The translations under genes were made by a program, and so were the position numbers. The notes beneath the pieces were generated by a model, which worked only from the letters and a program-made list of their open reading frames with translations, did not search any database and was not told the origin of the DNA. Shown here piece after piece: positions 12,241-31,527 of a stretch of 63,365 nucleotides of DNA. Every line of letters starts with the position of its first letter. The stretch's first letter is position 1. Origin of the DNA: Bacillota bacterium (GTDB taxonomy: Bacteria > Bacillota > UBA994 > UBA5500); contig JAWLDB010000002.1 in assembly GCA_041686915.1 (NCBI GenBank), forward strand, positions 1 to 63,365, read 5' to 3'.

Positions 12241-12377
12241 TCCCAAATTTGATTCCTGTTGCACAATATGGCACAACGGGTGGATGGGTGCGCGTAGTCG
12301 TGGTAAAGCGAAAGCCACCCGACAGGTGGCTTCTATCTCATTTTCTGTTCCTGGGGCAGACGCATGTTTATACCTCA

Positions 12378-13034: not shown

Positions 13035-13102
13035 CCTGTCACTCCTCCCCATACTCTGCCGAACGGGTCAACCACATTCGTTTAAGGAAGTTCGGCAAAC
13101 GA

Positions 13103-13879: not shown

Positions 13880-13938
13880 GCTTACCCTCCATTTCAACCT
13901 GGCTTCCATGAGGCATGGGTTATGTAGGTCTGTTTACA

Positions 13939-14778: not shown

Positions 14779-15082
14779 TTTGCACTCCCCCATTCTATCT
14801 CATTGTTACATTTCGAACTTATGGTTTACAAGCACAATCTGTCAGCATCCACCGACAGCATTACCGGTGCTGCTTCACTTTTCACAGGGTAAAATATGGT
14901 TATGTCTTAAGGTGAGTCTAGCGGTTAACACCAGTTTAGTGGCACAATCTTCTTTGAAAAGCAAAACCAGCTGAGGCTTCGTTGATACGGGCTGCCGGGA
15001 AGCAGAATTGACACGGGGATAGGAATGCTCATACTTTGACAGAACGATAGACGATAATGGAAGTTTGAGAGGAGGAACACAT

Positions 15083-16258: not shown

Positions 16259-16290
16259 CCGCAGTATTCAAAGCCTGGGCTAGATATGCT

Positions 16291-16323
16291 AAAGCCCCCT
16301 TCGCAGGGGGCTTTGCTGTTCTT
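16291..16323. terminator. Bidirectional hairpin terminator
   Basis: AAAGCCCCCT-TCGC-AGGGGGCTTT between convergent genes. Confidence 0.8.
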
Positions 16324-16355
16324 ATGGTGCGGATAAGACAGAGACTGCCTTTGTC

Positions 16356-17807
16356 TTATTTGGCGCGGCTGCGGCGCCGTTCCCAATAGCGCTTAGCAAT
16401 TGCAGCATCTGAGAACGGGATGGAGGTCTTGCCAATTTTCAAGGTATCCTCGTGTCCTTTACCCAGCACTAGCACCACGTCCTCCGGACCCGCCATGCCT
16501 ATGGCAGCCTCAATCGCTTTTTCACGGTCCAACTGCACAAGGTGCGGCTTATAGATACCACGCAGCGTCTCACGAGCTATGACCTCAGGGTCTTCGTCTT
16601 CAGGATTATCGTTGCTCAAAATCACGTACTCGCTGTAGCGACTGGCAATTTCACCCATAAGCGGGCGCTTCTCGCGGTCACGGTTACCGGTACAGCCAAA
16701 AAGTGTGATCACTTGACCCTTGGCGATGCGGCGGGCATGCTGCAACACTTGCTCCATGCCATCCGGTGTATGCGCGTAATCAACGATGACGGTGGGGGCC
16801 GTTCCGACTACTTCCCACCGCCCCTTCGGCAAGGTTAGATGAGGAATGCCTCTTAGGAAGTGGAAGGGGTCTTGCCCGATGCAGATGATACCGCCGAGAG
16901 CAGATAATAGATTATAGAGGTTATGCAGACCAGCCAAAGGTGTTGTTACCTGGGCGGTGCGGCCATCTATATCCAGCTCGAAGCTGAACCCATCGTGGTT
17001 AATCATGATATTGCGCGCCTGAATGCGAGCACGGCGCATAGTACTGATTGTCAGGGCACCCTCGAACTCGTCAGCCAAGCGGGCACCGTATGGGTCATCG
17101 ATATTGATCACCGCCTGCTTGTGTGGCATCAGAAACAGCTTGCGCTTGGCCTGAAAATACGCCTCAAAAGTCTTATGATAATCCAGATGATCCTGGGTCA
17201 GGTTGGTGAAGATCACACCGGCAAAATCCATTCCACGCGCCCGGTCCTGCTCCAGAGAGATGGAAGAGATCTCAACACCCACCACCTTAGCATTCTGCTG
17301 GTGCAGATTCGCTAAGATGCGTGCCATTTCCAGCGCATCGGGGGTCGTGTTTACAGTCTCTTCAAGTTTCTGATCTTCGGGAAAGAACACACCAAGTGTA
17401 CCGATGGTAGCAGTAGGCACGCCACCATGGTTAAGCAGGCTGGCGATCAGATGGCAGGTCGTAGATTTGCCGTTGGTCCCTGTTATCCCGAGTTGTCGCA
17501 ACTGCTTGCTATAGTCTCCGTAAAACGCATACGCCAAGTCGGCCAAAGCCTGATTGCTGCTCTCCACCTGAATGTAGTTGGCGTATGGCAGGTCACGCTC
17601 ACCTACTATCCAGGCAGCTCCATTGGCCAATACCTGGGCAGCAAAATTGTGCCCATCAACGCGCTCGCCTACTTTGCAGACGAAGACGCATCCGGGCCTG
17701 ACCTGGCGCGAATCATGGTATATACCTTGTACTTTTATGGCACCAGTCTTGATGTCTTCAATCAACCGATTAAACTCCAACTTACAGCCCCTCCCAAGGA
17801 ACCCCAT
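16356..17807 (-). CDS. murE: Mur ligase, MurE-like (UDP-MurNAc-L-Ala-D-Glu : diamino acid ligase paralog)
   Basis: Motifs align colinearly with MurE: GITGTNGKSTT P-loop, GCTGNRDREKRPLMG, NDNPEDEDP, GKGHED. The start is ambiguous between TTG/ATG at 17810/17807 and a TTG at 17780 behind GGGAGGGG. Confidence 0.85.
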   Translation of the reverse strand: MGFLGRGCKLEFNRLIEDIKTGAIKVQGIYHDSRQVRPGCVFVCKVGERVDGHNFAAQVLANGAAWIVGERDLPYANYIQVESSNQALADLAYAFYGDYSKQLRQLGITGTNGKSTTCHLIASLLNHGGVPTATIGTLGVFFPEDQKLEETVNTTPDALEMARILANLHQQNAKVVGVEISSISLEQDRARGMDFAGVIFTNLTQDHLDYHKTFEAYFQAKRKLFLMPHKQAVINIDDPYGARLADEFEGALTISTMRRARIQARNIMINHDGFSFELDIDGRTAQVTTPLAGLHNLYNLLSALGGIICIGQDPFHFLRGIPHLTLPKGRWEVVGTAPTVIVDYAHTPDGMEQVLQHARRIAKGQVITLFGCTGNRDREKRPLMGEIASRYSEYVILSNDNPEDEDPEVIARETLRGIYKPHLVQLDREKAIEAAIGMAGPEDVVLVLGKGHEDTLKIGKTSIPFSDAAIAKRYWERRRSRAK

Positions 17808-17816
17808 CAACTTCCG

Positions 17817-18905
17817 TTATTTCTCAGAATCCTCTTCTGTTGTTTCTTTATGTTTGCGACCACGTAGGAATGCACTGAAGCGTCTCCACAGCTTTAGAGC
17901 CCATGGAGAGAAATTGCGCCACAGCCAGAACGGGAACCTCCGGATTGGCAGCTCATATTCACCCACAAACTCAATCAACTCACCGCCAAAGCTCTTCTTG
18001 AACTGATATAACCCATGAAGTGGTGACTCTTCTGAGTAGTCTACCGGCACACCGAAGAAGTCGAATACTTCAGCTCCGCGCGATTTGGCCCAAAGCATGC
18101 GGCGCCAGTTAAGGCCGTAATAGCCACGCAGATTAGCGAACTCGCGCACCATTCCACCGTAGACAGCCCAGCCGATTTTCCCGGTAACAACGGTCACGCC
18201 GGCGGCGACTACTTGTCCCTCGTGAAGCGCCAACATCAATGAAGCCTGATCTCCCATGGAATCAAGCAATCGCTCGTAGTACTCCGGGCCGCGCTCGAGG
18301 AATTTCTTACGGCGACTGGTATCTCGTAATGCTTCCATCAAGAGCGGAATATCCTCTTTAGTGCCAAGCCTGAAATCCACACCGTTCTTCTCTGGGTAAC
18401 GAATGCTGTAGCGGGTCTTCTTGGGCATCGTCGCCAACAGTTCTTCCTCATCAGCAGAAATGTCGAGACGAAAAGTTAGGCGCGGCTGCGTTCCCCCAAA
18501 GGGGTGATCCGAAACGACTCTCTCGAAACCGATTTCCTCCAGCGTTTTGGCCCGCTGTTTACTAGTCCAAGCCGGGTCAATCTTCAGTGCAAAGACCCCT
18601 TGCCTCCTCATTTCCTCCCGCAGTTGCTCCAGAAAGTGAGGGAGGTACTGTGCCGCATCATCAACCAACAATACTGGTCCGCGGGGCGCATAACCCAGGG
18701 ACCAAGGTAGCAAAGGCGGCTTGCGCAACCAGACTGTAACCGCTATCACCGGCCCACCACCCTGGTCATACGAGTAATGCACGGGCCTCCAGCTGACTGA
18801 CTTCAGCTTTGCCCAAACGGCAGTCTGCGCAAAGTCAGGTTCTGGTGAGCTTTGTATCAGTTTATCAAATTGGCCGGCGTCATCCGGACCTACTCTTCTC
18901 AGCAT
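17817..18905 (-). CDS. FemAB-family peptidyltransferase (aminoacyl-tRNA-dependent peptidoglycan branch formation)
   Basis: The length and sequence pattern (FAQTAVWAKLK..., two GNAT-like lobes, C-terminal helical region) fit the FemX/FemAB family. The second ATG has proper SD spacing after GGAGGA. Confidence 0.7.
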   Translation of the reverse strand: MLRRVGPDDAGQFDKLIQSSPEPDFAQTAVWAKLKSVSWRPVHYSYDQGGGPVIAVTVWLRKPPLLPWSLGYAPRGPVLLVDDAAQYLPHFLEQLREEMRRQGVFALKIDPAWTSKQRAKTLEEIGFERVVSDHPFGGTQPRLTFRLDISADEEELLATMPKKTRYSIRYPEKNGVDFRLGTKEDIPLLMEALRDTSRRKKFLERGPEYYERLLDSMGDQASLMLALHEGQVVAAGVTVVTGKIGWAVYGGMVREFANLRGYYGLNWRRMLWAKSRGAEVFDFFGVPVDYSEESPLHGLYQFKKSFGGELIEFVGEYELPIRRFPFWLWRNFSPWALKLWRRFSAFLRGRKHKETTEEDSEK

Positions 18906-18961
18906 CAGCATAGTCCTCCGTTCGCGGGCAACAGGTAATAGCCCGTCCGCCCCTTCCTCTA

Positions 18962-18990
18962 ATTATAGGATTGACAAAAATAGGCGTCAA
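18962..18990 (-). promoter_or_regulatory. Sigma-A-type promoter for the femAB-like/murE-like operon
   Basis: On the minus strand, TTGACG - 17 nt - TATAAT. Confidence 0.6.
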
Positions 18991-19099
18991 GTTAACTCCC
19001 TGGACAGTTCCTGACGCGAAAATTTGGTCTGACTAAGCAGGTTTTGACAAAACAATGCTGAAATTCTACTTTAGGCAATTCCACCAAGGAGGGATCTGA

Positions 19100-20746
19100 T
19101 TGGCTCGTAAAGTCGACGTCGTGTTCAACAAGTACTACCGCTATGACGAAATCACCGCTTATTTACAGGCAGTTGCTGCAGCTTATCCCGAGATCGCCAG
19201 GCTGGAGTCGGCTGGCAAGAGTTATGAGGGCCGCGACATTTGGGTAATGACCCTCACTAACCAGGCTACCGGCCCCGACCTCGAAAAGCCGGGCATATAT
19301 GTAGATGGCAACATTCATGCTGGCGAAGTGACTGCCGCCATGGTCTGTTTGTCTGCCATAGACTACCTGGTCTCCAACTATGGTGAGGATGAGGAAGTCA
19401 CTCATCTGCTGAACACTCGCTCCTTCTACATCCTTCCCCGCGTAAACCCGGACGGAGCCGAGAAGTATTTGACGACGCCGTTTATGCTGCGCAGCAGTGT
19501 AAAACCATATCCACATCCGTTTGAAGAGTTCGATGAAATGCCCGGATTACATCCTTACGATGTGGATGGCGACGGCTGGATATTGACGATGCGCGTGCGT
19601 GACGACAAGAAGGGTGAGTGGAAAGCATCGGACAAAGATGCCCGCCTGATGCTACCACGGCGACCAGGCGAACGCAAAGGTCCCTTCTATCGCATCTATA
19701 CTGAAGGTGTAATCAAGGAGTTTGAGGGAGAACCGTTTACAGTACATCGCAGCCCCTTTGGTCTGGACCTAAACCGCAACTTCCCACACAATTGGGACTT
19801 AACGGTAAACGGCGGCGGCGTATACCCGAGTTCTGAGCCGGAAGCAAAGACGATAATCGACTTCTTGCTAGCACACCGTAATGTCAGTTTGCTTAACGCC
19901 TTCCATACTTCAGGCGGGTTCTTCTTCCGCAATCCGTATCAGTATGGTGAGGACAAAATGGACCAGGATGACCTGAGGGCCACCAAGGAAATCGCCCTCG
20001 AAGGCACCTATGTCACCGGTTATCCGGATGTTAAGTCGAACAACAAAGCCACTCTCACCGAGTGGGCTTATGAGCAACATGGCATCATCGGCTATACCAC
20101 AGAGCTCTGGGACCGTATGAGCCGCGCAGGTATCGACCGCAACGATTACCTGAAGGCTGATACGCCCGAGAAGCGCGAAGCGCTGCAGCTCAAGCTGCTT
20201 GAGTGGAATGACCGGGAACTCATGGGTAAGGGCTTTTTTGACTGGCGCGCCTTTGAGCATCCCCAACTAGGCTGGGTGGAGATCGGTGGATGGAACCCGA
20301 AGTTTGTGTTGCAAAATCCACCGCCACAGCTACTGGAACCGGAATGTTACAAGAACACCCAGTGGGTATTGCGCCAAGCGTCCGCTTTGCCGCAAGTTGC
20401 CATCGATGACGTACAGGTTGAGCAGGTGGAAGCCGGTGTGTTTAAAGTTACTGCCACGTTTGAGAACCTGGGATACCTGCCTACCTATACCACCAACAAG
20501 GGCAAGCAGGCGGGTGCTATCAAGCAGGACCGCGCAAGACTAAGCGGCGAGTTTAACCTACTCGCTGGGAAGCCGGAGATGGAAATCGGTTATCTGGAAG
20601 GCTACATGAACGGCCACCATGGCAACCCAGCCAAGTCAACTGCGCGCGTAAGCTGGTTACTGCAAGCCAAGTCGGGCGCTGACGTCAGGATCGAGCTGAT
20701 TAGCCAGCGCGGTGGCGTTGCCCGCACCTCCGTCTGCCTGAACTAG
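19100..20746 (+). CDS. M14-family zinc carboxypeptidase, no signal peptide (paralog 1)
   Basis: Zn ligands and catalytic residues are in order: GNIHAGEV (HxxE), DLNRNF, AFHTSGG, YTTELWD. The TTG start lies 6 nt after GGAGGG. Confidence 0.85.
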   Translation: MARKVDVVFNKYYRYDEITAYLQAVAAAYPEIARLESAGKSYEGRDIWVMTLTNQATGPDLEKPGIYVDGNIHAGEVTAAMVCLSAIDYLVSNYGEDEEVTHLLNTRSFYILPRVNPDGAEKYLTTPFMLRSSVKPYPHPFEEFDEMPGLHPYDVDGDGWILTMRVRDDKKGEWKASDKDARLMLPRRPGERKGPFYRIYTEGVIKEFEGEPFTVHRSPFGLDLNRNFPHNWDLTVNGGGVYPSSEPEAKTIIDFLLAHRNVSLLNAFHTSGGFFFRNPYQYGEDKMDQDDLRATKEIALEGTYVTGYPDVKSNNKATLTEWAYEQHGIIGYTTELWDRMSRAGIDRNDYLKADTPEKREALQLKLLEWNDRELMGKGFFDWRAFEHPQLGWVEIGGWNPKFVLQNPPPQLLEPECYKNTQWVLRQASALPQVAIDDVQVEQVEAGVFKVTATFENLGYLPTYTTNKGKQAGAIKQDRARLSGEFNLLAGKPEMEIGYLEGYMNGHHGNPAKSTARVSWLLQAKSGADVRIELISQRGGVARTSVCLN

Positions 20747-20751
20747 CAGCA

Positions 20752-21258
20752 ATGGCCATCAAACCTATTCGCCAGCTAGGCGACCCGGTATTACGGCAGG
20801 TTTCTCAACCAGTAGTGCAGTTTGAAACGAATGAACTCAGACAGCTGGTGGACGACCTGCGAGATACACTCCACTCCTTCCAAGCCAAACATGGCACAGG
20901 TCGCGGCATCGCAGCACCACAGATTGGCGTGCCACTAAGAGTGGTTTATCTGGAGTTTGCGGGAACACCGCATACGCTGATCAACCCTAGTTTCACTCAG
21001 CTAAGTGAAACCCTGTTCTCGGTTTGGGACTCCTGCTTCAGTTACTTCTGCATAGCCTTTGAGGTTATCCGGCATAGACACGTAACACTGAAGTACTATG
21101 ATATCTCCGGACGGGAGCATATCCTGGAAGCCTCCGACGACCTGGCTGAGCTGCTGCAGCATGAACTTGAACACCTGGATGGTATATTGGCCATCGATCA
21201 ACTGGTGCCTGCGGGGAAAATCATGGAGCAGTACGAGTTCCTCAAAGGTAATAAGTAA
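20752..21258 (+). CDS. def: Peptide deformylase-like metallohydrolase
   Basis: Motif 1 GIAAPQIG and motif 3 QHELEHLDG are canonical. Motif 2 is WDSCFS instead of EGCLS (the Cys is kept). The start lies 5 nt after the M14 stop. Confidence 0.75.
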   Translation: MAIKPIRQLGDPVLRQVSQPVVQFETNELRQLVDDLRDTLHSFQAKHGTGRGIAAPQIGVPLRVVYLEFAGTPHTLINPSFTQLSETLFSVWDSCFSYFCIAFEVIRHRHVTLKYYDISGREHILEASDDLAELLQHELEHLDGILAIDQLVPAGKIMEQYEFLKGNK

Positions 21259-21306
21259 CCACGCACCTCCCAACCGGCATAATCTGCTGGGAAGGAGGTG
21301 TTTTTT

Positions 21307-21981
21307 GTGCAACGAGATCCACGAGTACCCAAGTCTTGTCCTGGTGGGTTCCTGGGTCATTACCGGGTTGTCACGGGAGATACCATGTTTAACATTGCCC
21401 AGTTCTTCAGAGTTAGACCGATCACCCTGATCATGGCCAATCCACACATCGAGAACCCGGATGTGATCTATCCAGGAGACATCCTTTGCATTCCGGGGCT
21501 TGTCCCCTACCCCTGCTGTTTAGTGCTTCAACCGCGGGAGGAGGTACCCACTGGGACTAGCGCATCCGCGCTGCTGCACGTCGAGTTCCGGGGAGGTCAG
21601 GCTGTTTCAGTTGTGGCGGCGCTCCCCCCACCTGAGACTTGGGGTGAGTTTGACCTATACCTGGCAGAGGTACTAATCAACCCAGAGGTTGGCGGTTTTG
21701 GCAATCAGTTATTCCCCACACCGGAAGATCCACCGACTTGGTCGACCACCATCAACTTGCCAACGGTTGTAGAGGTTGCACCGGAAAGCTTCGTCGTGCT
21801 TCGTCCGGCCAACTCTGAGTCAGGAATCTCTGGTCCGGCCATTCTCCAGGGCAGCATGCGTGACTGCTTCGATAGTGCCACCTGCGCCGATAGTAGAGAA
21901 GAACAACTAGCGACAAAGGCAAGGACTGGGATTCGGCGTAGACTGCGCAGGCGACGTCGAAACCGTAAGCCCCGTAGATAG
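21307..21981 (+). CDS. LysM-domain protein with unknown middle domain and poly-Arg C-terminus
   Basis: LysM signature YRVVTGDTMFNIAQFF...NPDVIYPGDILCIPG. No signal peptide. The tail is RTGIRRRLRRRRRNRKPRR. The GTG at 21307 lies 8 nt after GGAGG. Confidence 0.75.
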   Translation: MQRDPRVPKSCPGGFLGHYRVVTGDTMFNIAQFFRVRPITLIMANPHIENPDVIYPGDILCIPGLVPYPCCLVLQPREEVPTGTSASALLHVEFRGGQAVSVVAALPPPETWGEFDLYLAEVLINPEVGGFGNQLFPTPEDPPTWSTTINLPTVVEVAPESFVVLRPANSESGISGPAILQGSMRDCFDSATCADSREEQLATKARTGIRRRLRRRRRNRKPRR

Positions 21982-22059
21982 CATAAAAGGTGCAGTCTGC
22001 AGGAATGTCTCATCTCTCCCGCCAATACACATACTGGCATTTGATCGGAGGGATAGAGC

Positions 22060-23712
22060 ATGAGCAAAGCGCTAGTCTCCTTTAACCACTATTGGCTGTA
22101 TGACGAGTTAGAGAGCTATTTGCACAGCATCTCCAGCGATTACCCGCGATTAGTCGACCTGCAGTCGGTTGGAACGAGCTATGAGGGACGCGACATCTGG
22201 GCAGTAACACTTACCGATACGGAGACAGGAGAGCATCATGAGAAAGCGGCCATCTACATTGATGGCAGCATCCATGCTGTTGAGGTTGCAGCCAGTATGA
22301 TCTGTCTTTACCTGATTGACTACCTGCTGAGCAGTTACGGCCTGGACGATGACGTAACCCACCTACTGAAAACCCGTACCTTCTACATACTACCCCGGGT
22401 TAACCCTGACGGTACAGAGAAGTACCTAACAACGCCATACATACTGCGCAGCAGTGTTCGGCCTTGGCCAAAGTCCATGAATGAGCATGCCAGTCTGTCT
22501 GGTCTCCATCCTGAGGACCTCAACGGCGACGGATATATTCTGAACATGCGGCAACGCGACGATAAGGTTGGCGAGTGGAAACTCTCCAGTCGCGACCCAC
22601 GCATCATGGTTCCCCGCAGGCCGGGAGACAGGTTTGGACCGTTTTACCGTATGTTCTCCTGGAGTGAGGGCTTGGTGCGCGATTATGAGGGCTGGCCCTT
22701 CGAGATTCACCATTCGCCTTGGGGAGTTGACCTAAACCGCAACTTCCCGCAGAGCTGGGACCCGAAACTTCTTGGTGCCGCAGATTACCCGGGTTCAGAG
22801 CCTGAGAGCCGGGCTGTGATGGACTTCATTCTCACCCACCGCAATATCAATTTGCTGAACGCCATTCATACCGCGGGCGGGCTGTTTTTCCGCAATCCCT
22901 ATCAGTATCAAGATGACAGGATGAACCCCGATGACTTGCGCTTCACCCGTGAAATAGCCTATGAAGGTACTGCATTAACCGGCTACCCGGATGTGAAATC
23001 AAACGGACGCGCTACCCTACCCGAATGGGCCTACGAACAGCTTGGGATTATTGGCTACACAACCGAAGCATGGGACAGACTGGGGCAAGCTGGCCTGCCC
23101 TACGATGCCTTCAGCAGGGCGAATACTTCTGCTGATCGGGAGCAGCTGCAGCTCCGACTGCTGCAATGGAATGACCGGGAGCTCATGGGCAAAGGTTTCT
23201 TCAACTGGAAGCCGTTTGATCATCCGCAGCTTGGGACAGTGGAGATTGGGGGCTGGAACCCGAAGTTCAACATGGCTAACCCGCCACCACAACTGCTGGC
23301 TGCCGAATGCCATAAAGTAAGCAAGTGGGCTGTCAGACAAGCTTCCGCCCTGCCGGAGGTTTCGCTAGGGGGCATGTTGGTAGAGCAAATCAGCGATGAC
23401 ACATGGAAGCTCGTGGCCACCTTTGAAAACGGTGGCTATCTCCCCACCTGCACGAGCAATAAAGCACGGGAGGTGCAGGCAGTCAGGCAGGACATTGTAT
23501 CACTGTCTGGCCCTGTGACTATTCTATCGGGCACACAGGTGCAGGATGCAGGATTTCTCGAAGGCTACGGACAGGGCCATGGGGGTCGGCCGGCACAATC
23601 TGCCGCACGGGTATGTTGGCTGCTGCGCGGTGAGGCAGGAACAGAGGTACAGGTTACCTATCAGAGCCAGCGTGGTGGCTTAGTCAGGGCTAACGTTAGA
23701 TTGGACAACTGA
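22060..23712 (+). CDS. M14-family zinc carboxypeptidase, no signal peptide (paralog 2)
   Basis: GSIHAVEV, DLNRNF, AIHTAGG and YTTEAWD are present. It is colinear with 19100..20746 over the full length, including the C-terminal extension (ELMGKGFF.W..F.HPQLG.VEIGGWNPKF). Confidence 0.85.
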   Translation: MSKALVSFNHYWLYDELESYLHSISSDYPRLVDLQSVGTSYEGRDIWAVTLTDTETGEHHEKAAIYIDGSIHAVEVAASMICLYLIDYLLSSYGLDDDVTHLLKTRTFYILPRVNPDGTEKYLTTPYILRSSVRPWPKSMNEHASLSGLHPEDLNGDGYILNMRQRDDKVGEWKLSSRDPRIMVPRRPGDRFGPFYRMFSWSEGLVRDYEGWPFEIHHSPWGVDLNRNFPQSWDPKLLGAADYPGSEPESRAVMDFILTHRNINLLNAIHTAGGLFFRNPYQYQDDRMNPDDLRFTREIAYEGTALTGYPDVKSNGRATLPEWAYEQLGIIGYTTEAWDRLGQAGLPYDAFSRANTSADREQLQLRLLQWNDRELMGKGFFNWKPFDHPQLGTVEIGGWNPKFNMANPPPQLLAAECHKVSKWAVRQASALPEVSLGGMLVEQISDDTWKLVATFENGGYLPTCTSNKAREVQAVRQDIVSLSGPVTILSGTQVQDAGFLEGYGQGHGGRPAQSAARVCWLLRGEAGTEVQVTYQSQRGGLVRANVRLDN

Positions 23713-23755
23713 ACGCATGCAGACAGGGGAGGCTGTATTAGCCTCCCCTGACCAC

Positions 23756-24907
23756 TTACGTTTGCGATTTCCTTTTCTTCCTGAACAGGTACCAAGTGTA
23801 GTCCATAATACACGAGTATAACTTGGGAACTTGCTCCTGCCTCTCACCTGGCAAGAGCACTTTTGCAGGCTTAGCATTAGCTTCCAGCATCCATAGTCGT
23901 AGGTCTCGGTCGTAAGCTAGGTCAACGCCAACCTCCCCCATGGTACCAAATGCTTTGTCTATGTGACGACAAATGATGTCCGCTACAAAATGGGCTTGTT
24001 TCTTCAACCACAGCGCCTTGGTAACAGAACCCGTAATCTGTTTCAGCGCATCGTACAACTCAAAATGCTCAGCACCCAGATGAAAATTAGTGGCAAACTG
24101 GCCTGACTGGCCAACTCGCATACGCGAAGATACTGGCACCCATCTGCCTGACTCATCTTTACCCATGTAGATCCTGATGTCACAGTTTCTACCTTCCATC
24201 TGCATCAGCGGTATCCGCTGCTGTACTATACTCTCCTGCCTACTCGAATTCTTCCTGACCAGCTTGGCTACCTGCGAAAACCTTAGACTCGTACGACGTT
24301 TCCCGGTATCTGAGCTTTGCCATCCATAGCGACGCCGACGCATCAACCAGACTAGCGAAATGCTGTCTCCCCCACTTCCGCTCACAGGCTTCACTAACAC
24401 TGATTTGTGCCGCGACAGCATCGTGCGTAAGTCACTGGAATCCCGGTAGATGACAGTGGCAGGCAGATATTTGGCTGTATCCGGGTATGCACGTAAGCGC
24501 GAATGGCAGTTCCACTTACCCAAAATATTGGTGCTGTTGATTAGCTTGGCAGTGCTGCGCATTTTGCGCCGGACTTTTAATAGAGGCCGTCTTTTCCCAG
24601 GCGGGCAACGGTAAATCCGGTCATAGAGCACATCTGGCCACGGCACGCGTTTACGGTACCATCGACCGTCTGAGCCCAGTACCCAGCCGTAAATCCTTTT
24701 CGCCCCCGGCTCAACATCGTCAAGCCCAAAGTAGTACGCCAGGATGCCAGCCGCCTGGGCAGCTTGCATATTGAGTATTGCCTCTTCCACTCTCTCCTGA
24801 TGTGACAGTTTATGTATGAACGTGACGTGGGTGAAGATGGCAAGTACAGGTCTTGCCCTGCGCCGTCGACGTTTCTTGCTGTTCTTGCGCCTTGGCTTGT
24901 TAGGCAT
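23756..24907 (-). CDS. YheC/YheD-family ATP-grasp protein (paralog 1), Arg-rich N-terminus
   Basis: The pattern GILAYYFGLDDV...RVPWPDVLYDR...EVGVDLAYDRDLRLWMLEANAKP fits the YheC/D ATP-grasp family (E-x-N Mg site). The ATG at 24907 follows GAGAGGGGGTGA. The N-terminus is MPNKPRRKNSKKRRRRRARP. Confidence 0.75.
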   Translation of the reverse strand: MPNKPRRKNSKKRRRRRARPVLAIFTHVTFIHKLSHQERVEEAILNMQAAQAAGILAYYFGLDDVEPGAKRIYGWVLGSDGRWYRKRVPWPDVLYDRIYRCPPGKRRPLLKVRRKMRSTAKLINSTNILGKWNCHSRLRAYPDTAKYLPATVIYRDSSDLRTMLSRHKSVLVKPVSGSGGDSISLVWLMRRRRYGWQSSDTGKRRTSLRFSQVAKLVRKNSSRQESIVQQRIPLMQMEGRNCDIRIYMGKDESGRWVPVSSRMRVGQSGQFATNFHLGAEHFELYDALKQITGSVTKALWLKKQAHFVADIICRHIDKAFGTMGEVGVDLAYDRDLRLWMLEANAKPAKVLLPGERQEQVPKLYSCIMDYTWYLFRKKRKSQT

Positions 24908-24928
24908 CGACGCATCACCCCCTCTCTC

Positions 24929-24956
24929 TATGCTATGGAGTTGAGGCAATCTCTGT
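24929..24956 (-). promoter_or_regulatory. Sigma-K-like promoter candidate
   Basis: On the minus strand, AC - 17 nt - CATAGCATA (consensus AC-N16/17-CATANNNTA), 21 nt upstream of the start codon. Confidence 0.45.
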
Positions 24957-25008
24957 GAAAAGCAATCCCGGTCATCACTCAGCTTGAGTGGTGTTCTAAA
25001 CTGCCCGA

Positions 25009-25042
25009 TATGAAAGAGACCCTCTGACTTGAAATCAGAGGG
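25009..25042 (-). terminator. Rho-independent terminator after ATP-grasp paralog 2
   Basis: On the minus strand, CCCTCTGA-TTTCAAG-TCAGAGGG followed by TCTCTTTCAT. Confidence 0.7.
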
Positions 25043-25044
25043 CG

Positions 25045-26142
25045 TTAGTCTTTGTGGCGATATAGGTACTTCGCGTACTGCATTGTCCTGGTGAACTTCT
25101 CCGGCACATAACCTTTATCGGTGCTTTGGTCTTTGTCAGGCCTCGCATTGGCTTCGACTATCCATAGCCGAAAATCCCGATCGAACGCCAGGTCGAGACC
25201 AACCTCGCCCATGCGCCCAACCCCTGCCTCCAGACGCTGCACTACCAACTCCGCCGTCTCCTTGACCTGCTGCATCAATTCTTCCACCCGGAAAACGTCC
25301 TTAAGGATCTTTAACAACTCTTGGTCCAGGTCGGCTGCCTGAGCACCCTGGTGGGTATTTGAGACTATCGACCCAGGTTCGCCGATACGTAATCTGAAGG
25401 AGTAAGGAATCCATTTACCCTGCAGTTCTTTCTGCATCAGTACACGGATATCCGCCTTTCTCTTGCCAATGGTCAGTATAGGGATTTCCTGCTGAACAAC
25501 TGAGTGCCTGCCTGAGATACGGAGTACTTTCCTATATAGTCTGCGGAATGACAGTCCCAGGTGTGGAGTGTTGTTTCCGGACTGTTGAAGGGCGTAGCTC
25601 CTGCCTGCTCTCCATGCGCGACAAACTCCCCGCCCACGGCTCCCTGTATCCGACTTGATGAACACCGCTGGATGTTGTCTCAACATTAGCCGCAGCTGCT
25701 TTGGGCCTCGATGCCGGACGGTATGGGGTAGAAGATCTCGGGTATCCGAATATCGTGTGAGTACGACGTGGCAGCGCCACTTCGCAAGCATCACGTCTGT
25801 ATTTATGGAGATAGTACTGCTGCGCAGCAGTCTATAGACTACCCTCGCCCTACTAGCTGCAGGGGGACGGCGCTGCACATACAGCACGTCAGGCCAGGGA
25901 AGATCCTGCTCCACCCAACGTCCATCAACCCGCAGCCATCCACGAATACGGCGCTGAGGCCAGTTTACCCCACGCAGGCCGAAGTGGTAAGCTGTGACAC
26001 CTTCCTGCTTAGCCGCAGCCGCATACAGATTGGCCTTGTCCAATGGCCCCTGTTTGGGCAGTCCATCAAGATATGCGTCTACCACCAGGATGCCCAAAAC
26101 TGGTACCCGTTTCTGACTTCTTTCAGTTTGCTCATCGATCAT
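25045..26142 (-). CDS. YheC/YheD-family ATP-grasp protein (paralog 2)
   Basis: GVTAYHFGLRGV...DLPWPDVLYVQR...EVGLDLAFDRDFRLWIVEANARP. GGAGGTGA SD is present. Confidence 0.75.
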   Translation of the reverse strand: MIDEQTERSQKRVPVLGILVVDAYLDGLPKQGPLDKANLYAAAAKQEGVTAYHFGLRGVNWPQRRIRGWLRVDGRWVEQDLPWPDVLYVQRRPPAASRARVVYRLLRSSTISINTDVMLAKWRCHVVLTRYSDTRDLLPHTVRHRGPKQLRLMLRQHPAVFIKSDTGSRGRGVCRAWRAGRSYALQQSGNNTPHLGLSFRRLYRKVLRISGRHSVVQQEIPILTIGKRKADIRVLMQKELQGKWIPYSFRLRIGEPGSIVSNTHQGAQAADLDQELLKILKDVFRVEELMQQVKETAELVVQRLEAGVGRMGEVGLDLAFDRDFRLWIVEANARPDKDQSTDKGYVPEKFTRTMQYAKYLYRHKD

Positions 26143-26179
26143 GCAATCACCTCCAAGCAGTCTGCATGATTAGCTATAC

Positions 26180-26207
26180 TAGTATATGCATTGGAGTTAT
26201 AGCACGT
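26180..26207 (-). promoter_or_regulatory. Sigma-K-like promoter candidate
   Basis: On the minus strand, AC - 17 nt - CATATACTA. It shares AACTCCA just upstream of the -10 with the 24929..24956 candidate. Confidence 0.45.
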
Positions 26208-26235: not shown

Positions 26236-28080
26236 CTATGGCCCGCCCTTAAACCTCTGCCTATGTAGTCCTAGTCCCATCAACCTGCCCATGTAGCTGC
26301 CGAACGAAATGTCCCTAAACCTAGACAACTGCTGATCACATCCGCACAAGTCCTGTTCAGCCATTGCCAGCCGTTCAAACTGCCTGGAAAGGGCTGCCTG
26401 AACCTTGCCAGTAGGCACCGCAAACTTTTCCTGCCGCTGCTTCAGCCAGCGCAGTGCCTTGTCCGTCTGGCCGCGTAATCTTTTGCTTGCTACGCTTCTG
26501 CGCTTTGCTGCGCGAGCCTCCTGGTCGGTAGCACTCTCATCCAACAACCGATACAGGCCCCCATATTTCCGTGTGATTAGAGTAGCTTCCCGGCCATATG
26601 CCAGAGAGGCCTGTGCCAGTTCCCTCACTTCGTTCAGGCGATAGTTTTGGCGACGCTCCTCTAGCTCTAGCAATGCTTCATCCAGCTCGCTATCAATGCT
26701 TTGCAGTGCCCGACGCTCCTGCTCTAGGGCGTTTTCGAACCGATCTTTGAAGAGAGACCTGTCAGCTTCTTCAGCACGCTTGTATCTGGCCCGCCGAGCC
26801 TCCAGGCGGTGCATACGCCAACCCTCTAGCCGCAATCTCCATCTGAGAGATTGCCTTTCCTGTTGGAGTAAACGTTTGTGGCGCACCACTGGCTGCATCT
26901 GGTATCTGCACCAGAGGCCAACCAAAGCCAGAAAGCTGCTTCCTCCTGCCAGGTATCCGGCCGTGGTGAGGACGAGAGTTCCCTGTACGGCTGAAGACGC
27001 AACTGCCGCGTTAAATAACAACCAAAGCCCAGCCAACAGGCGTTCTTTCAGCAATCCGCCCTGCCATCCGGATGGCTGTTCGGGGGTAAGGTGATCCAAC
27101 ACCCAACTTGGTCCAGCAAAGGCTGAATGGGTGGTCATTGCCTGCTCTCGCAGGTTTGTACGGGTCTTAAAGATGCGCATTCGTTGCCGACGCTTGGCCA
27201 ACCGCTCAACCTCTGCAGGCTCTGGCGCTGGCACCTTAGCAGGGTCAAGCTTGAGGAAGTCGCACAGGCCAGCCGCCAGTGCCGGTATGCTCTCCTTGCA
27301 TCCGGCGAGCAGCTTCCAGACTTCTGTTCGACCAGGTTGTTCCAGGTCGTCCTTGCGGAGCAAAAGGTGCTCATCACCGGAAAGCTGCCAGAGTGCAGGC
27401 TCGTAGCTAAAAGCAAGTAGAGATAGATAGACCAACCACCCTGAGAAATTGTCCAGCCAGGGGCCAAAGTGCTGGCTGTCTCGCAAAGGATGTTGGTAGT
27501 TGCGGTGACCCAACTCATTGCTGCCCACATTGTTCAGGGCAGGGACGTACATCCCATCATAGTCAATCAGAGAGAGCTTCCCCTCGTTCACCAGTACGTT
27601 TCCGTGCTGCAGATCTCCATGCGCTACTCCCTGTCGACGCAGGTCCTGCAACATCCTCAGCCAGTCGTCAGCCAACGTCTTGAGCTTCTCTGGTCGTGAA
27701 AGGTTTTGCTGGATATAGGTGTTTAGCGGTAGCCCGGGCACCCAGTCCATCTTTAGCACAGGGTACCAGCGGCCCTGCACTTTGATGCCTTGCTCCAGGT
27801 ATTGAAAACCCGCTGTATAGGGCAGGCCAACCGTGCTCAGGTGCTGGCTGATTGCTTCATAGCGCCGCTGTTGGTCCGCTACCTGGCGTAGAAAACAACG
27901 GACCGCCCAATCGCTTCCACCATAGGAAATGCGATAGACACTGGCAAAGCCTCCGGTTACCGCCCGTGGCAACCCAAGGGGGGTTAGTTCAGGGCGACCT
28001 CCTCTAAGCTCGGGCAAGCTAAAACAGAGGGCTGGGCCCTGTACCGCTTCGTTATAGTCTTGTGGAGTAGGCCAGGGCAT
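26236..28080 (-). CDS. Ser/Thr-kinase-fold protein with two TM helices and a long Arg/Glu-rich helical tail (YegI-like)
   Basis: G-loop TGGFASVY, catalytic loop HGDLQHGNVLV, IDYDG at the DFG position. Hydrophobic hairpin LLAGLWLLFNAAVASSAV / AGYLAGGSSFLALVGLWC. The ATG at 28080 lies 5 nt after GGGGGGA. Confidence 0.8.
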   Translation of the reverse strand: MPWPTPQDYNEAVQGPALCFSLPELRGGRPELTPLGLPRAVTGGFASVYRISYGGSDWAVRCFLRQVADQQRRYEAISQHLSTVGLPYTAGFQYLEQGIKVQGRWYPVLKMDWVPGLPLNTYIQQNLSRPEKLKTLADDWLRMLQDLRRQGVAHGDLQHGNVLVNEGKLSLIDYDGMYVPALNNVGSNELGHRNYQHPLRDSQHFGPWLDNFSGWLVYLSLLAFSYEPALWQLSGDEHLLLRKDDLEQPGRTEVWKLLAGCKESIPALAAGLCDFLKLDPAKVPAPEPAEVERLAKRRQRMRIFKTRTNLREQAMTTHSAFAGPSWVLDHLTPEQPSGWQGGLLKERLLAGLWLLFNAAVASSAVQGTLVLTTAGYLAGGSSFLALVGLWCRYQMQPVVRHKRLLQQERQSLRWRLRLEGWRMHRLEARRARYKRAEEADRSLFKDRFENALEQERRALQSIDSELDEALLELEERRQNYRLNEVRELAQASLAYGREATLITRKYGGLYRLLDESATDQEARAAKRRSVASKRLRGQTDKALRWLKQRQEKFAVPTGKVQAALSRQFERLAMAEQDLCGCDQQLSRFRDISFGSYMGRLMGLGLHRQRFKGGP

Positions 28081-28099
28081 AGTTGTCCCCCCATCACAC

Positions 28100-28843
28100 T
28101 CAAGCAAGCTCTACCCGTATTACCGTTACATCGTCGTTCCTGATCTTGCGCCGCGACCGCAAGTCCCCGACAAAAGCCTGGAAGGTACCAGCTGACAGCG
28201 CAGCATCAAGCAGTTCCCATGGCCGGCCACCTGCGCAAGCATCCTTCAGCATCCAGGCAGCAACAGCATCTGTTAACAGATAGAAACGGTCTCCCGCCAA
28301 CCACTCTCCGGATGTGCAAATGCGTCCATGCTTTGCCTTTTTAACCAGATCAGGTCGACTACCGATCAGTTGCGGATTACTGCCAAACTGTGCTGCATCA
28401 ACGACTGGAAAACTACCAGCCCACTCACCACCGCTCACCTGTACCAGTAGACAATCACCCACCACCATTGCATGCCAGCGACCTCGGCACACGCCTCTCT
28501 CCCTCAGGCGTAAGCCCAGTAGCGTAGCAAACGCACCCTGCGCCAGTTTCATCTCGGCGTACCAGGGAAGCTGGTCGGTATTCACGGTTTCCAGCCACCT
28601 CTGCTGTAGCTTGGGCAGGTATTGATCAATTCGCTTCTCGCTTAGCCAGCCTTTACACCAGGCGCGGGTCAGCATGCGAGCCCAGAGTCCGGAAAAGGAA
28701 GCCTCGGTTGCGCCATCAGCTATAGCAAAGCTAAAGGCATCAGCGGAGCAAACAACGTCTTGGATGGGCCAGAAGGCATCTTCATATTCGTCAGGCTCAC
28801 ATCCTGCCTTAGGCAACCAGGCAACTTGTGACTTGATCTGCAT
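28100..28843 (-). CDS. PP2C-like protein phosphatase
   Basis: FAIADGATEAS, LLTDAVAAW and NDDVTVIRV match the metal-binding Asp blocks of bacterial PP2C_2-type phosphatases. Confidence 0.7.
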   Translation of the reverse strand: MQIKSQVAWLPKAGCEPDEYEDAFWPIQDVVCSADAFSFAIADGATEASFSGLWARMLTRAWCKGWLSEKRIDQYLPKLQQRWLETVNTDQLPWYAEMKLAQGAFATLLGLRLRERGVCRGRWHAMVVGDCLLVQVSGGEWAGSFPVVDAAQFGSNPQLIGSRPDLVKKAKHGRICTSGEWLAGDRFYLLTDAVAAWMLKDACAGGRPWELLDAALSAGTFQAFVGDLRSRRKIRNDDVTVIRVELA

Positions 28844-28851
28844 GTATTGTC

Positions 28852-29694
28852 CTAGCGCAGATTGCTGTCAGCAACCCGGGTGCCGATATCCAGGAAGTTG
28901 ATTAAGGATACCATGTCGGCGTTGAACACAAATCCACGCGCGCCCTGAAGCACCCGTTTGCCATCCTGCTCGGCCATACCACGCATTTGGTCTGGCAGCT
29001 CACTGGACAGATTGAACAGTACCTTGGCATACTGGTCCGGCAGCTCATCCGGGCTGCTTGGGAACTCGACCGGGGTTGACGGGGTAGAAGAAATGTGAAT
29101 GTTAAATAACAGCACGGGGCCATCGCTGGACCGCATCTCTCGCAGGTTTTGGGCCGCCTGCTCTGGATTGCCGTCGGTTGACTCGCCATCCGTGATGTTG
29201 ATAACGATGGGCGGATAGCAGTCGGGGTGCTGCGTCAACCAGCCTTGCAGGATGCGTTCGACAGTTGAAAGTGCCTTGCACATAGGCGTGCCACCTTTGG
29301 CTACTGCATCAAACCAAACCGGGAATTTGATAGTCTGAGTGACTAGCCCGCCGGCGCCGTCATCAATCTTACGGGTACGTTCCTCAATGCGCGCAGGCGA
29401 GTTAGCGATCTCGCTGATTGGAACGAGTTCTCTGCCAGCAATGCTTCCAGCAAAGGCAGGACTGACTTTGCCACCATAGCCAATTATGCCAATGTGATAA
29501 TAGTCACGCACCCCTTCGGACTTGGCGCACTTCAATACGAGATTTTGCAGCAGTCGATTGATGACAGTAGCCAGGCTGTCTGCCTTCTTTCTCCTAGTTT
29601 CATCTGGTAGCTCGTCCTGCATCGAGCCTGACTGGTCCAGACAAAACAGAATACAGGATGGGTTGGTGCGGCTGATCTCAGCAGAATACGGCAT
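28852..29694 (-). CDS. von Willebrand factor A (vWA) domain protein, cytoplasmic (TerY/YegL-like)
   Basis: MIDAS start ILFCLDQSGSM, later ...GGTPM... and ITDGESTDG blocks. No signal peptide. Confidence 0.85.
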   Translation of the reverse strand: MPYSAEISRTNPSCILFCLDQSGSMQDELPDETRRKKADSLATVINRLLQNLVLKCAKSEGVRDYYHIGIIGYGGKVSPAFAGSIAGRELVPISEIANSPARIEERTRKIDDGAGGLVTQTIKFPVWFDAVAKGGTPMCKALSTVERILQGWLTQHPDCYPPIVINITDGESTDGNPEQAAQNLREMRSSDGPVLLFNIHISSTPSTPVEFPSSPDELPDQYAKVLFNLSSELPDQMRGMAEQDGKRVLQGARGFVFNADMVSLINFLDIGTRVADSNLR

Positions 29695-29862: not shown

Positions 29863-31266
29863 TTATGCCCTAGTTATTTCCATTCCTTTTACTGTATCCT
29901 TAACAGCGTAGCCCATTTGTCGCAGATGGTCGCGCAGTTCGTCGGAGCGCGCCCAGTTTTTGGACTCACGAGCGGCCTGACGCTCAGCAAGCAACTGTTG
30001 CACTTCGTCCGGAAGCTGTGCTAGGTCGAGCTTTGGCTCTTCTTCCACCTGTCCGGCGGTCAAATCAAGAGCTACCACCCGGTCCAAGTCTTTCGCCAGC
30101 GAGAACAGCTCAGGGCCTAGGTTGGCGCGAGTAGCTTCCCACAGCACTGCGATAGCCTTCGGCATATTCAGGTCATCGTTGATTGCATTCAAGAAGTCTG
30201 CCTTAACCTGCTCCCTGCGCTCAGCCGCGCCTTCAACCTTTGCCTGACCGGCACTCCTCTGTATCACCTTACGCAGGGAAAGTAGGCCTTTTTGAGCACC
30301 TTCCAGGGCTGACCACGTAAAGTTCAGCTGCTTCCCATAATAGGCGTTCAAGCAGAAATAGCGATAGGCCAGCGGCTCAAACCCCTTCTTGACCAGATCA
30401 TTAATTACATAGGCATTACCTAAGCTCTTCGACATCTTACCGCCATCAACCAGGAGGAATTCGCCATGCATCCAGTAGCGCGCCCCTGGAGCACCAGTGC
30501 AGGCTGCTGTTTGAGCGATCTCGTTCTCGTGATGGATGGGGATATGGTCTACACCGCCGGTATGGATGTCGAACAGGTCACCGAGATACTTCCTACCCAT
30601 GGCCGAGCACTCGATATGCCACCCCGGATAACCCATACCCCACGGGCTCTCCCACTGCATGATATGCTCCTTGGGGGCCTTCTTCCAGACGGCAAAGTCA
30701 GCCGGATGACGCTTCTCATCATTCACAGCAACGCGAGCACCAGCCTTTTGCTCTTCCAGCTTGATACCGGATAGCTGGCCATACTCCGGGTACTTACTAA
30801 TGTCGTAGTAGATGCCATCGCTGGTCTCATAAGCGTAGCCACGTTCGATCAGCTCCTGGACCATTTCAATCATTTCTTTGATATGCGTTGTAGCCGGGCT
30901 AGAGATAGTAGGCGGCTTGATGTTCAGGCGCTTGATATCCTCGGTGAACACTTCTGTATAGTAGGCAGCAATTTCCCAAGGCGACTTTTGCTCCTTCTGG
31001 GCAGTGACCAGCATTTTGTCCTCGCCCTCATCCTCATCGGACACTAGATGGCCTACATCGGTGATATTCATCACCATTTTCACTTTTAATCCGTTGTACT
31101 CAAGGGTGCGACGCAGGCTATCTGCAAAGATATATGCGCGCATGTTACCGATATGAGCGTACTGATAGACAGTGGGGCCGCAGACATACATTCCCACATG
31201 CCCGGGTTTAATAGGCTCAAAGCGTTCCTTTTTTCTGGTCATCGTGTTGTACAGCTGAATATCCAT
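29863..31266 (-). CDS. cysS: Cysteine--tRNA ligase
   Basis: HIGN (HIGH) and KMSKS motifs. The ATG at 31266 follows AAGGAGG. The upstream part of the listed ORF covers the T-box leader. Confidence 0.95.
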   Translation of the reverse strand: MDIQLYNTMTRKKERFEPIKPGHVGMYVCGPTVYQYAHIGNMRAYIFADSLRRTLEYNGLKVKMVMNITDVGHLVSDEDEGEDKMLVTAQKEQKSPWEIAAYYTEVFTEDIKRLNIKPPTISSPATTHIKEMIEMVQELIERGYAYETSDGIYYDISKYPEYGQLSGIKLEEQKAGARVAVNDEKRHPADFAVWKKAPKEHIMQWESPWGMGYPGWHIECSAMGRKYLGDLFDIHTGGVDHIPIHHENEIAQTAACTGAPGARYWMHGEFLLVDGGKMSKSLGNAYVINDLVKKGFEPLAYRYFCLNAYYGKQLNFTWSALEGAQKGLLSLRKVIQRSAGQAKVEGAAERREQVKADFLNAINDDLNMPKAIAVLWEATRANLGPELFSLAKDLDRVVALDLTAGQVEEEPKLDLAQLPDEVQQLLAERQAARESKNWARSDELRDHLRQMGYAVKDTVKGMEITRA

Positions 31267-31287
31267 TTCAGAACCTCCTTCTTGGCA

Positions 31288-31527
31288 AATAAAAAACGAC
31301 TCAAATCGTCTCAGAGACGATCGAGCCGTGGTTCCACTCTGTTTGAAGCCCAAAGGCTTCCACTCTACGGTTATAACGTAACCACCGGCCATGACCTACT
31401 AACATTAGCGTTCGGTTGGCAGCTCGAGGGGGCACGCATCAAAAGTAGCACGGGAGCTGTTGCAGCCTGGCAGCCCCTCTCTAAACGTGCCTGCACTATG
31501 ACACCATCCCTGTCATCGCCTGTACTT
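31288..31527 (-). promoter_or_regulatory. T-box leader (tRNA-sensing riboswitch) of cysS
   Basis: On the minus strand: GCGATGA (GA motif), TTTAGAGAGG (AG box), a T-box core AGAGTGGAACCACGG (about 31326..31340), then a terminator hairpin and T-run (GAGACGATTTGAGTCGTTTTTTATTT) just before the SD. Confidence 0.7.

Follow-up and report, generated by a model that had tools for sequence, protein, structure and literature searches.

A run of amide-bond genes in an uncultured Bacillota genome, read as a probable mosaic of separable modules

The window analyzed here is a stretch of 63,365 nucleotides from an uncultured Bacillota genome (GCA_041686915.1, contig JAWLDB010000002.1, deposited at NCBI without annotation), and the element in question is an island of eight consecutive genes at positions 16356-26207, whose products belong to families that make, trim, or bind peptide amide bonds. 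According to an initial annotation, the three transcription units of this island would work together as a ligase/peptidase writer-eraser system whose target is either a non-canonical muropeptide or a peptide-tailed component of the spore envelope. Our analysis favors a different explanation, to which we assign a probability of about 0.58: the stretch would be a mosaic of separable modules, lying in a syntenic housekeeping neighborhood of an uncultured spore-forming Bacillota lineage.

Genes and features of the island

We confirmed eight open reading frames in the island and assigned their families by Pfam and NCBIfam, and the families, order, and strands agree with those first annotated. Unit (i) consists of femAB and murE on the minus strand, unit (ii) of M14a, def, LysM, and M14b on the plus strand, and unit (iii) of two YheC/D genes on the minus strand. 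The remainder of the window is a housekeeping neighborhood that includes asd and three aminoacyl-tRNA synthetase genes. The features of the island are as follows.

16356..17810, minus strand: murE-like Mur ligase, DNPE replacing DNPR (Pfam, NCBIfam, alignment)
17817..18911, minus strand: FemX-like aminoacyl-tRNA-dependent transferase (Pfam FemAB, solved relatives)
18962..18990, minus strand: sigma-A-type promoter of femAB-murE, TTGACG-17-TATAAT (11/12 consensus matches)
19100..20746, plus strand: M14a, cytosolic carboxypeptidase-T-like zinc carboxypeptidase (Pfam, structures, fold model)
20752..21258, plus strand: accessory peptide-deformylase paralogue, 5 bp after M14a (Pfam Pep_deformylase, 2e-40)
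21298..21981, plus strand: LysM protein with poly-Arg C terminus and without signal peptide (one LysM domain)
22060..23712, plus strand: M14b, paralogue of M14a (Pfam Peptidase_M14, 59% identity)
23712..23762, no strand: inverted repeat, bidirectional terminator-like hairpin between the convergent M14b and YheC/D-1 (23-nt arms, 5-nt loop)
23756..24949, minus strand: YheC/D ATP-grasp ligase 1 with basic N terminus (ATPgrasp_YheCD, 2e-60, 205 bits)
24929..24956, minus strand: sigma-K-like motif AC-N17-CATAGCATA upstream of YheC/D-1 (pattern match)
25019..25043, minus strand: terminator-like hairpin 3' of YheC/D-2
25045..26142, minus strand: YheC/D ATP-grasp ligase 2 (ATPgrasp_YheCD, 3e-55, 188 bits)
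26180..26207, minus strand: sigma-K-like motif AC-N17-CATATACTA upstream of YheC/D-2 (pattern match)

Most of the signals named in the initial annotation were recovered. The promoter upstream of femAB-murE is of sigma-A type, as claimed, and is conserved in eight related loci; both sigma-K-like motifs upstream of the YheC/D genes were matched; and direct reading of the translations showed none of the eight island proteins to begin with a signal peptide. Two poly-Arg tails had also been described. The basic runs exist, but one is the C terminus of the LysM protein (RRRLRRRRRNRKPRR, 21940-21981), and the other is the N terminus of YheC/D-1 (KPRRKNSKKRRRRRARP, 24850-24907). Poly-basic ends are found as well on the YheC/D proteins of two related loci (L117, 11937-13058; L118, 12072-13208). 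The start of YheC/D-1 is probably the ATG at 24907, which has a GGAGG ribosome-binding site in front of it, and the hairpin at 23712-23762 is probably a bidirectional terminator. The database copy of murE (P0121) starts one codon later.

Within the window, no Rfam family reached its gathering score, and there was no T-box leader 5' of cysS, gltX, or tyrS; ARAGORN found zero tRNA genes, and no repeats were found flanking the variable segment described below. Because all of these checks came back empty, we see no sign of a mobile-element boundary or a riboswitch.

The claimed theme does fit all eight genes. However, M14a and M14b (59% identity) and YheC/D-1 and YheC/D-2 (38% identity) are local paralogues, and two other genes form one operon, so that the number of independent themed units is about five rather than eight. 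Since the "amide-bond" category is in addition very broad, we take the shared theme to be largely a by-product of that breadth and of local duplication.

Gene order in related lineages and the variable slot

Synteny was counted over eight non-redundant related lineages, including the window itself; the relatives are uncultured, metagenome-assembled Bacillota genomes, and their M14a proteins are 67-89% identical to that of the window. In addition, 80 M14 genome loci with 10-kb flanks were each searched with all island proteins, and a metagenome scan using M14a gave only two useful loci. The gene orders of the eight lineages are given below, where <> marks divergent genes, >< marks convergent genes, and percentages are M14a identities.

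Window: murE femAB <> M14a def LysM M14b >< YheC/D-1 YheC/D-2 kinase PP2C vWA cysS
L081 (89%): window order, but with no LysM and a single YheC/D
L001/L114, L120, and L082, three lineages (70-72%): murE femAB <> M14 def >< cysS, with nothing between
L026 (73%): def, then 9 kb of other genes, then cysS
L116/L117 (68%): murE femAB <> M14 >< YheC/D cysS, def missing
L084/L118/L088 (67-68%): as L116/L117, with a periplasmic-binding-protein gene in the place of def

Both murE-femAB-M14 and cysS are present in 8/8 lineages, whereas def is found in 6/8, YheC/D in 4/8, M14b and the TerY-P kinase triad in 2/8 each, and LysM in the window alone, since L081, at 89% identity, lacks it too. The conserved gene order extends past the island, with an extracytoplasmic function (ECF) sigma factor / zf-HC2 / DUF4097 set on the left and nitroreductase, class-V aminotransferase (Aminotran_5), thymidine kinase, and uridine kinase genes on the right. 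Since this order persists in the window and its relatives alike, the adjacency of the island genes is largely synteny by descent. The expectation that the three units stay adjacent across genomes was borne out for unit (i) with M14a, but cysS and distant housekeeping genes are equally constant companions, and unit (iii) is there in only half of the lineages.

On this gene order, what lies between M14/def and cysS varies from lineage to lineage, and we call this interval a cargo slot. In the window, its right-hand part and boundary are formed by two further features.

26236..29694, minus strand: TerY-P triad of kinase, PP2C phosphatase, and TerY-like vWA protein (PADLOC)
29863..31392, minus strand: cysS, conserved right-hand boundary of the slot (present in 8/8 lineages)

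The triad, which separates cysS from the YheC/D genes and is common only to the window and its 89%-identical relative, was recognized by PADLOC as three contiguous genes (TerY PDLC02224, 3e-110; PP2C PDLC02222, 8e-31; STK_OB PDLC02223, 6e-75). TerY-P is an anti-phage system, and its presence here supports a slot that takes up accessory genes. The cargo of the L026 slot (12300-21300) comprises ArsR, a CapA-like PGA_cap protein, an M55 D-aminopeptidase, a pyridoxal-phosphate enzyme, and an ECF sigma factor; part of it is again related to peptides or D-amino acids.

These counts bear directly on the single writer-eraser system. Such a system would explain why eight consecutive genes all fall within the theme and why YheC/D occurs at the locus in 4/8 lineages, and the YheC/D model has the RimK/TTL-like amidoligase fold that a writer would need. 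ATP-grasp ligases can make peptidoglycan side chains, as does the D-aspartate ligase Aslfm of Enterococcus faecium. Yet the other four lineages keep murE-femAB-M14 without YheC/D, def is missing from two, LysM and M14b are restricted as described above, a defense triad is interleaved in the same slot, and the promoter types differ, units (i) and (ii) having sigma-A-type promoters and unit (iii) sigma-K-type motifs. Moreover, M14 and YheC/D are adjacent at none of the 80 other loci, and one relative has its nearest YheC/D elsewhere, in a coat-like cluster. Altogether, that the three units form one system now appears highly improbable.

The relative in question, GCA_050949055.1, has a murE-femAB-M14-def-cysS locus without YheC/D, and its nearest homologue of YheC/D-2 (37% identity) lies on another contig (JBMNFA010000001.1; L119, 3800-13600). 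A homologue search with YheC/D-2 gave only eight matches. The cluster that holds the YheC/D-2 homologue encodes a small acid-soluble spore protein (SASP), a YutH-like coat kinase, two GT4 glycosyltransferases, two YheC/D proteins, an epimerase, and a GerE-type regulator. Unit (iii) is thus scattered in this relative, an outcome that the initial annotation itself had named as refuting its model. From this cluster we conclude that the lineage sporulates. It also ties the YheC/D family to the spore coat, where the family is found in Bacillus too (PMC7725329).

At the locus itself, the history of YheC/D is one of fast change. The single YheC/D of L081 is the orthologue of YheC/D-2 (73% identity), whereas those of L117 and L118 share only 30-36% identity with either window copy, although their flanking genes are 64-72% identical. 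In a rough tree, the locus-associated copies group together, and the most economical history is an ancestral, fast-evolving YheC/D at the locus that was lost in half of the lineages.

Both YheC/D proteins of the window contain the PF14398 domain, and the ATP/Mg residues K163, E330, and N332 are invariant in the family alignment. The model of YheC/D-2, with a predicted local distance difference test score (pLDDT) of 84, has an amidoligase ATP-grasp fold whose nearest matches are GshB, Ddl, RimK, ArgX, and tubulin tyrosine ligase (TTL), from which we predict that YheC/D-2 probably functions as a ligase of amino acids or peptides. Across the 63-kb window there are four matches to the pattern AC-N16-17-CATANNNTA, against 2.45 expected, and two of these matches lie directly upstream of the YheC/D genes (24956 and 26207). 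A third sigma-K-like match (14890-14917, minus strand) lies ~100 bp upstream of a gene for a two-domain GNAT acetyltransferase (13939-14793).

The LysM protein has a generic LysM domain and resembles SafA; its score against the SafA-type model TIGR02899 is 46.9 bits, below the cut-off of 67.85. Taken together, the sigma-K-like motifs, the amidoligase-like fold, the SafA resemblance, and a LysM protein without signal peptide make a role in the spore envelope plausible for the YheC/D and LysM part of the island. The Def-like protein falls below both NCBIfam cut-offs (116 vs 125 bits and 92 vs 104 bits); its motifs 1 (GRGIAAPQ) and 3 (HELEH) are present, and motif 2 reads DSCFS instead of the canonical EGCLS, with the metal-binding Cys retained. 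Since def is missing from 2/8 lineages, we regard its product as an accessory paralogue.

The femAB-murE operon and the divergent M14 gene

The murE-like gene encodes all three Mur-ligase domains (PF01225, PF08245, and PF02875) and scores 474 bits against the NCBIfam MurE equivalog NF001126, above the cut-off of 373. Aligned to E. coli, T. maritima, and other solved MurEs, its catalytic motifs are complete (P-loop GTNGK, DHLDYH with the conserved Lys after it, DYAHTPD, and GKGHE). The altered specificity motif pointed out in the initial annotation is real: the Glu of DNPE aligns with Arg416 of E. coli MurE, that is, with the Arg of the DNPR motif that recognizes the distal carboxylate of meso-diaminopimelate (mDAP) in mDAP-specific MurEs. 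Within the clade, closer members have DNPE and deeper ones DNPA, whereas DNPR is found in at least 139 of the 149 nearest MurE representatives outside it. The Lys-adding MurE of S. aureus likewise has the motif DNPA, together with a negatively charged pocket (PMC3829189). With Glu or Ala standing in for the mDAP-binding Arg, the added diamino acid would be one without a distal carboxylate, of the Lys/Orn type. The window MurE scores higher on the DAP-type equivalog (474 bits) than on the Lys-type equivalog NF010628 (259 bits), so a narrow uncultured Bacillota clade appears to have lost the Arg in an independent switch from a DAP-type ancestor. A cyanophycin-synthetase-like or other poly-amino-acid polymer system was also considered and rejected, as the Mur ligase has an N-terminal UDP-MurNAc-binding domain, passes the MurE equivalog, and scores only 79 bits as cyanophycin synthetase against a cut-off of 850.

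The FemAB protein matches Pfam FemAB at 1e-48 (166 bits vs a gathering score of 24), and its best solved relatives are the FemX proteins of S. aureus (6SNR, 1e-26) and Weissella (8e-21). Against the FemX equivalog of NCBIfam (UDP-MurNAc-pentapeptide-lysine N6-alanyltransferase), it scores 95 bits, far below the cut-off of 500. A gap of 6-9 bp separates the gene from murE, which follows it on the minus strand and is co-transcribed with it. A MurE without the mDAP-binding Arg together with a co-transcribed FemX-like gene fits a non-canonical, that is, non-DAP and branched, stem peptide. The femAB/M14a intergenic region contains a core of ~40 bp (18955-18995) that is invariant in eight related loci (alignment A2), including the femAB promoter block. 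Over the -35 box and the spacer of this promoter lies a TTGAC-N10-GTCAA palindrome, which may be an operator for a regulator.

In the mosaic explanation, the sigma-A-driven femX-like/murE operon would most likely make the ordinary peptidoglycan precursor of the lineage, and it is probably a housekeeping operon with a MurE of a new motif variant. From what is known of these families, MurE would add the Lys/Orn-type diamino acid, and the FemX-like enzyme would then put a tRNA-delivered residue on the side-chain amine of that diamino acid. M14a, transcribed divergently and usually co-transcribed with the deformylase paralogue, would probably trim cytoplasmic peptides, and its duplication within the genus would have given rise to M14b. 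The def-cysS slot would here have received sporulation-type genes (the two YheC/D genes and the gene for the SafA-like LysM protein) and the TerY-P defense triad.

Whether this operon is the housekeeping one depends on the number of murE genes. A second, specialized copy beside a canonical DAP-type murE, making an alternative precursor for one wall layer (for instance the cortex of the spore, the germ-cell wall, or a wall built under stress), would fit a murE that lies outside any division and cell wall (dcw) cluster, and it would fit the prevalence of DNPR in the nearest outside representatives. It would also fit the isolation of the clade, which comprises 18 clusters at 90% identity (57-100% to the query) followed by a drop to ~43%, and which, upon 50% clustering over 1.84 billion proteins, collapses to one representative and a fragment, the next matches being at 45% or less. 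Against it, the Lys-type murE genes of staphylococci and streptococci are likewise outside the dcw cluster, the MurE equivalog cut-off is passed, the conserved promoter has the sigma-A consensus rather than a sporulation-type one, murE-femAB is kept in 8/8 lineages, and MurE keeps pace with CysS in its divergence (MurE/CysS identities of 87/85, 71/72, 68/72, 69/68, and 64/72% across relatives). A second MurE from three clade genomes annotated with the Prokaryotic Genome Annotation Pipeline (PGAP) was absent among the 120 best matches, which is a weak test. We think it likely that the window murE is the sole murE of its genome, and we rate the specialized copy as quite unlikely.

The M14 proteins, both ~550 amino acids long, match Pfam Peptidase_M14 at 6e-47 (M14a) and 3e-45 (M14b). 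Alignment of M14a to carboxypeptidase T shows the HxxE...H zinc ligands, the Asn-Arg carboxylate clamp, and the catalytic Glu all present, and the corresponding residues (H73, E76, N225, R226, H269, and E335) are invariant in 20 M14a homologues including M14b. An insert of ~95 amino acids (residues ~125-217) and a beta-rich C-terminal extension of ~190 amino acids distinguish M14a. M14b is sister to the M14a clade and is found only in the window and L081.

Both M14 enzymes had been assigned to the MpaA/endopeptidase I type, an assignment that we revise to carboxypeptidase-T-like on both sequence and fold. The top fold matches of the M14a model (pLDDT 84) are carboxypeptidases T, A, and B, and the MpaA type is absent from the top 50; among solved structures, none of the 54 sequence matches of M14a at E 1e-3 is an MpaA, all being of the carboxypeptidase T/A/B/D/M/N/O types. 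Since no MpaA-type enzyme was matched, cleavage by M14 of the gamma-D-Glu bond made by MurE is unsupported.

The M14 family is large and widespread, occurring in Bacillota, Chloroflexota, Nostocales (cyanobacteria), and Armatimonadota, but murE, femAB, or def adjoins it only at the loci of one narrow clade; in the 80 loci from other lineages, no Mur, Fem, Def, LysM, or YheC/D neighbor was found. De novo clustering of the neighbors in these loci yielded mostly antisense artifacts and generic families, such as ABC ATPases, histidine kinases, and ECF sigma factors. The specific neighbors that recurred were limited to an M24-like aminopeptidase, at 7 loci, and a polysaccharide deacetylase, at 6, neither of which is in the window. 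Other ~550-amino-acid M14 branches (L005, L006, L009, L010; L044, L045, L047, L053; L029-L033) occur as tandem triplets, in divergent pairs with the M24-like aminopeptidase, or beside the polysaccharide deacetylase, the tandem triplets being seen in Fermentithermobacillaceae genomes.

These observations also bear on a narrower proposal, in which femX-murE and M14a (with def) would be a co-regulated cytoplasmic build-and-trim or recycling pair for a branched non-DAP peptidoglycan precursor; M14a could, for example, remove the C-terminal residue of UDP-MurNAc-peptides or of imported muropeptides. The divergent arrangement in 8/8 lineages while both flanks change, the invariant intergenic core with its palindrome over the femAB promoter, a conservation of M14a equal to that of MurE and CysS, and the cytosolic location of both enzymes all speak for such a pair. 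Set against this, the family adjoins murE/femAB in this one clade only, M14a resembles carboxypeptidase T and not MpaA or LdcA-type recycling enzymes, and cysS and other unrelated genes are just as syntenic. On balance, we regard the pair as a tentative proposal that is unlikely to be correct.

Returning to the mosaic explanation, three observations weigh against it. First, YheC/D sits at the same position in four lineages, in copies that group together, and may be ancestral there rather than a chance insertion. Second, the divergent murE-femAB/M14 pair is kept throughout despite varying flanks, along with the intergenic core, so that murE-femAB and M14 may be co-regulated or functionally linked. 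Third, the clade MurE is isolated, at no more than ~45% identity to outside MurEs, which a diverged paralogue would fit too. A reduced form of the writer-eraser system would have femX-murE and M14a(-def), sharing a palindrome-bearing control region, as a cytoplasmic build-and-trim pair for a branched, non-DAP precursor, with the locus-ancestral YheC/D, lost in half of the lineages, adding an amino acid to the stem peptide or a coat component in late sporulation; we judge this combination to be very unlikely. What stands of the original functional reading is the fit of the Arg loss and the FemX-like gene to a non-DAP, branched stem peptide and the plausibility of a spore role, but not a single system that joins them.

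If the mosaic explanation is right, the main result is a correction, in that a system-like run of amide-bond genes would be accounted for by shared ancestry, local duplication, and a slot that takes up cargo. Genes that are adjacent and share a theme in one genome should then count as a system only where synteny from outside the family supports it. For the clade itself, which has no cultured member, the apparent loss of the Arg in a murE that now shares its operon with the gene for a FemX-like transferase leads us to expect a branched wall of the Lys/Orn type. A second lead is the widespread, highly conserved family of ~550-amino-acid cytosolic carboxypeptidases.

Comparison with known systems

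The closest parallel to unit (i) is the Lys-adding MurE of S. aureus (PDB 4C12; PMC3829189), which has the same three-domain Mur ligase architecture and the same complete set of ATP- and nucleotide-binding motifs. Both enzymes lack the Arg of DNPR, the motif being identical (DNPA) in the deeper members of the clade and DNPE in the window, and in both systems a FemABX transferase is present for side-chain branching and the gene lies outside the dcw cluster. Unlike the S. aureus enzyme, the window MurE is closer in sequence to DAP-type MurEs, and its gene shares one operon with femX. The window FemAB protein belongs to the same family and length class as the FemX proteins of Weissella viridescens (1NE9, 4II9) and S. 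aureus (6SNR), without the FemA coiled-coil insert and with FKKxFG conserved, although the similarity to the solved FemX proteins is weak (E 1e-26 to 1e-20).

For M14a, the best match in both sequence and fold is carboxypeptidase T of Thermoactinomyces vulgaris (1OBR, M14A/B type), from which it differs in its insert and C-terminal extension and in the multi-copy occurrence of M14 in these genomes. Because M14a has no signal or pro-peptide, unlike carboxypeptidase T, we take it to be cytosolic. With MpaA and endopeptidase I (M14C), it has the M14 clan and the cytosolic location in common, but it lacks a wall-recycling linkage in the 80 loci. Endopeptidase I, for its part, is a sporulation-specific enzyme in which LysM and M14 are joined.

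The pairing of an ATP-grasp amidoligase with an M14 carboxypeptidase recalls the eukaryotic writer-eraser of tubulin tails, formed by TTL and TTL-like (TTLL) ligases and the cytosolic carboxypeptidases (CCP, M14D), and TTL is among the fold matches of YheC/D-2. In contrast to that system, the window M14s are not of the CCP type, M14 and YheC/D do not co-occur across genomes, and no tagged substrate is evident. The YheC/YheD spore-coat proteins of B. subtilis (PMC7725329) share with the window proteins the PF14398 domain, the presence of two adjacent paralogues, sporulation-type promoter motifs, and, in a relative, a coat-like cluster; the window and clade YheC/Ds differ in being very divergent (25-38% identity even within the clade) and in their poly-basic termini. 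Finally, the TerY-P system of PADLOC is represented by all three components in canonical order and with strong matches, as a neighbor that stands outside the amide-bond theme.

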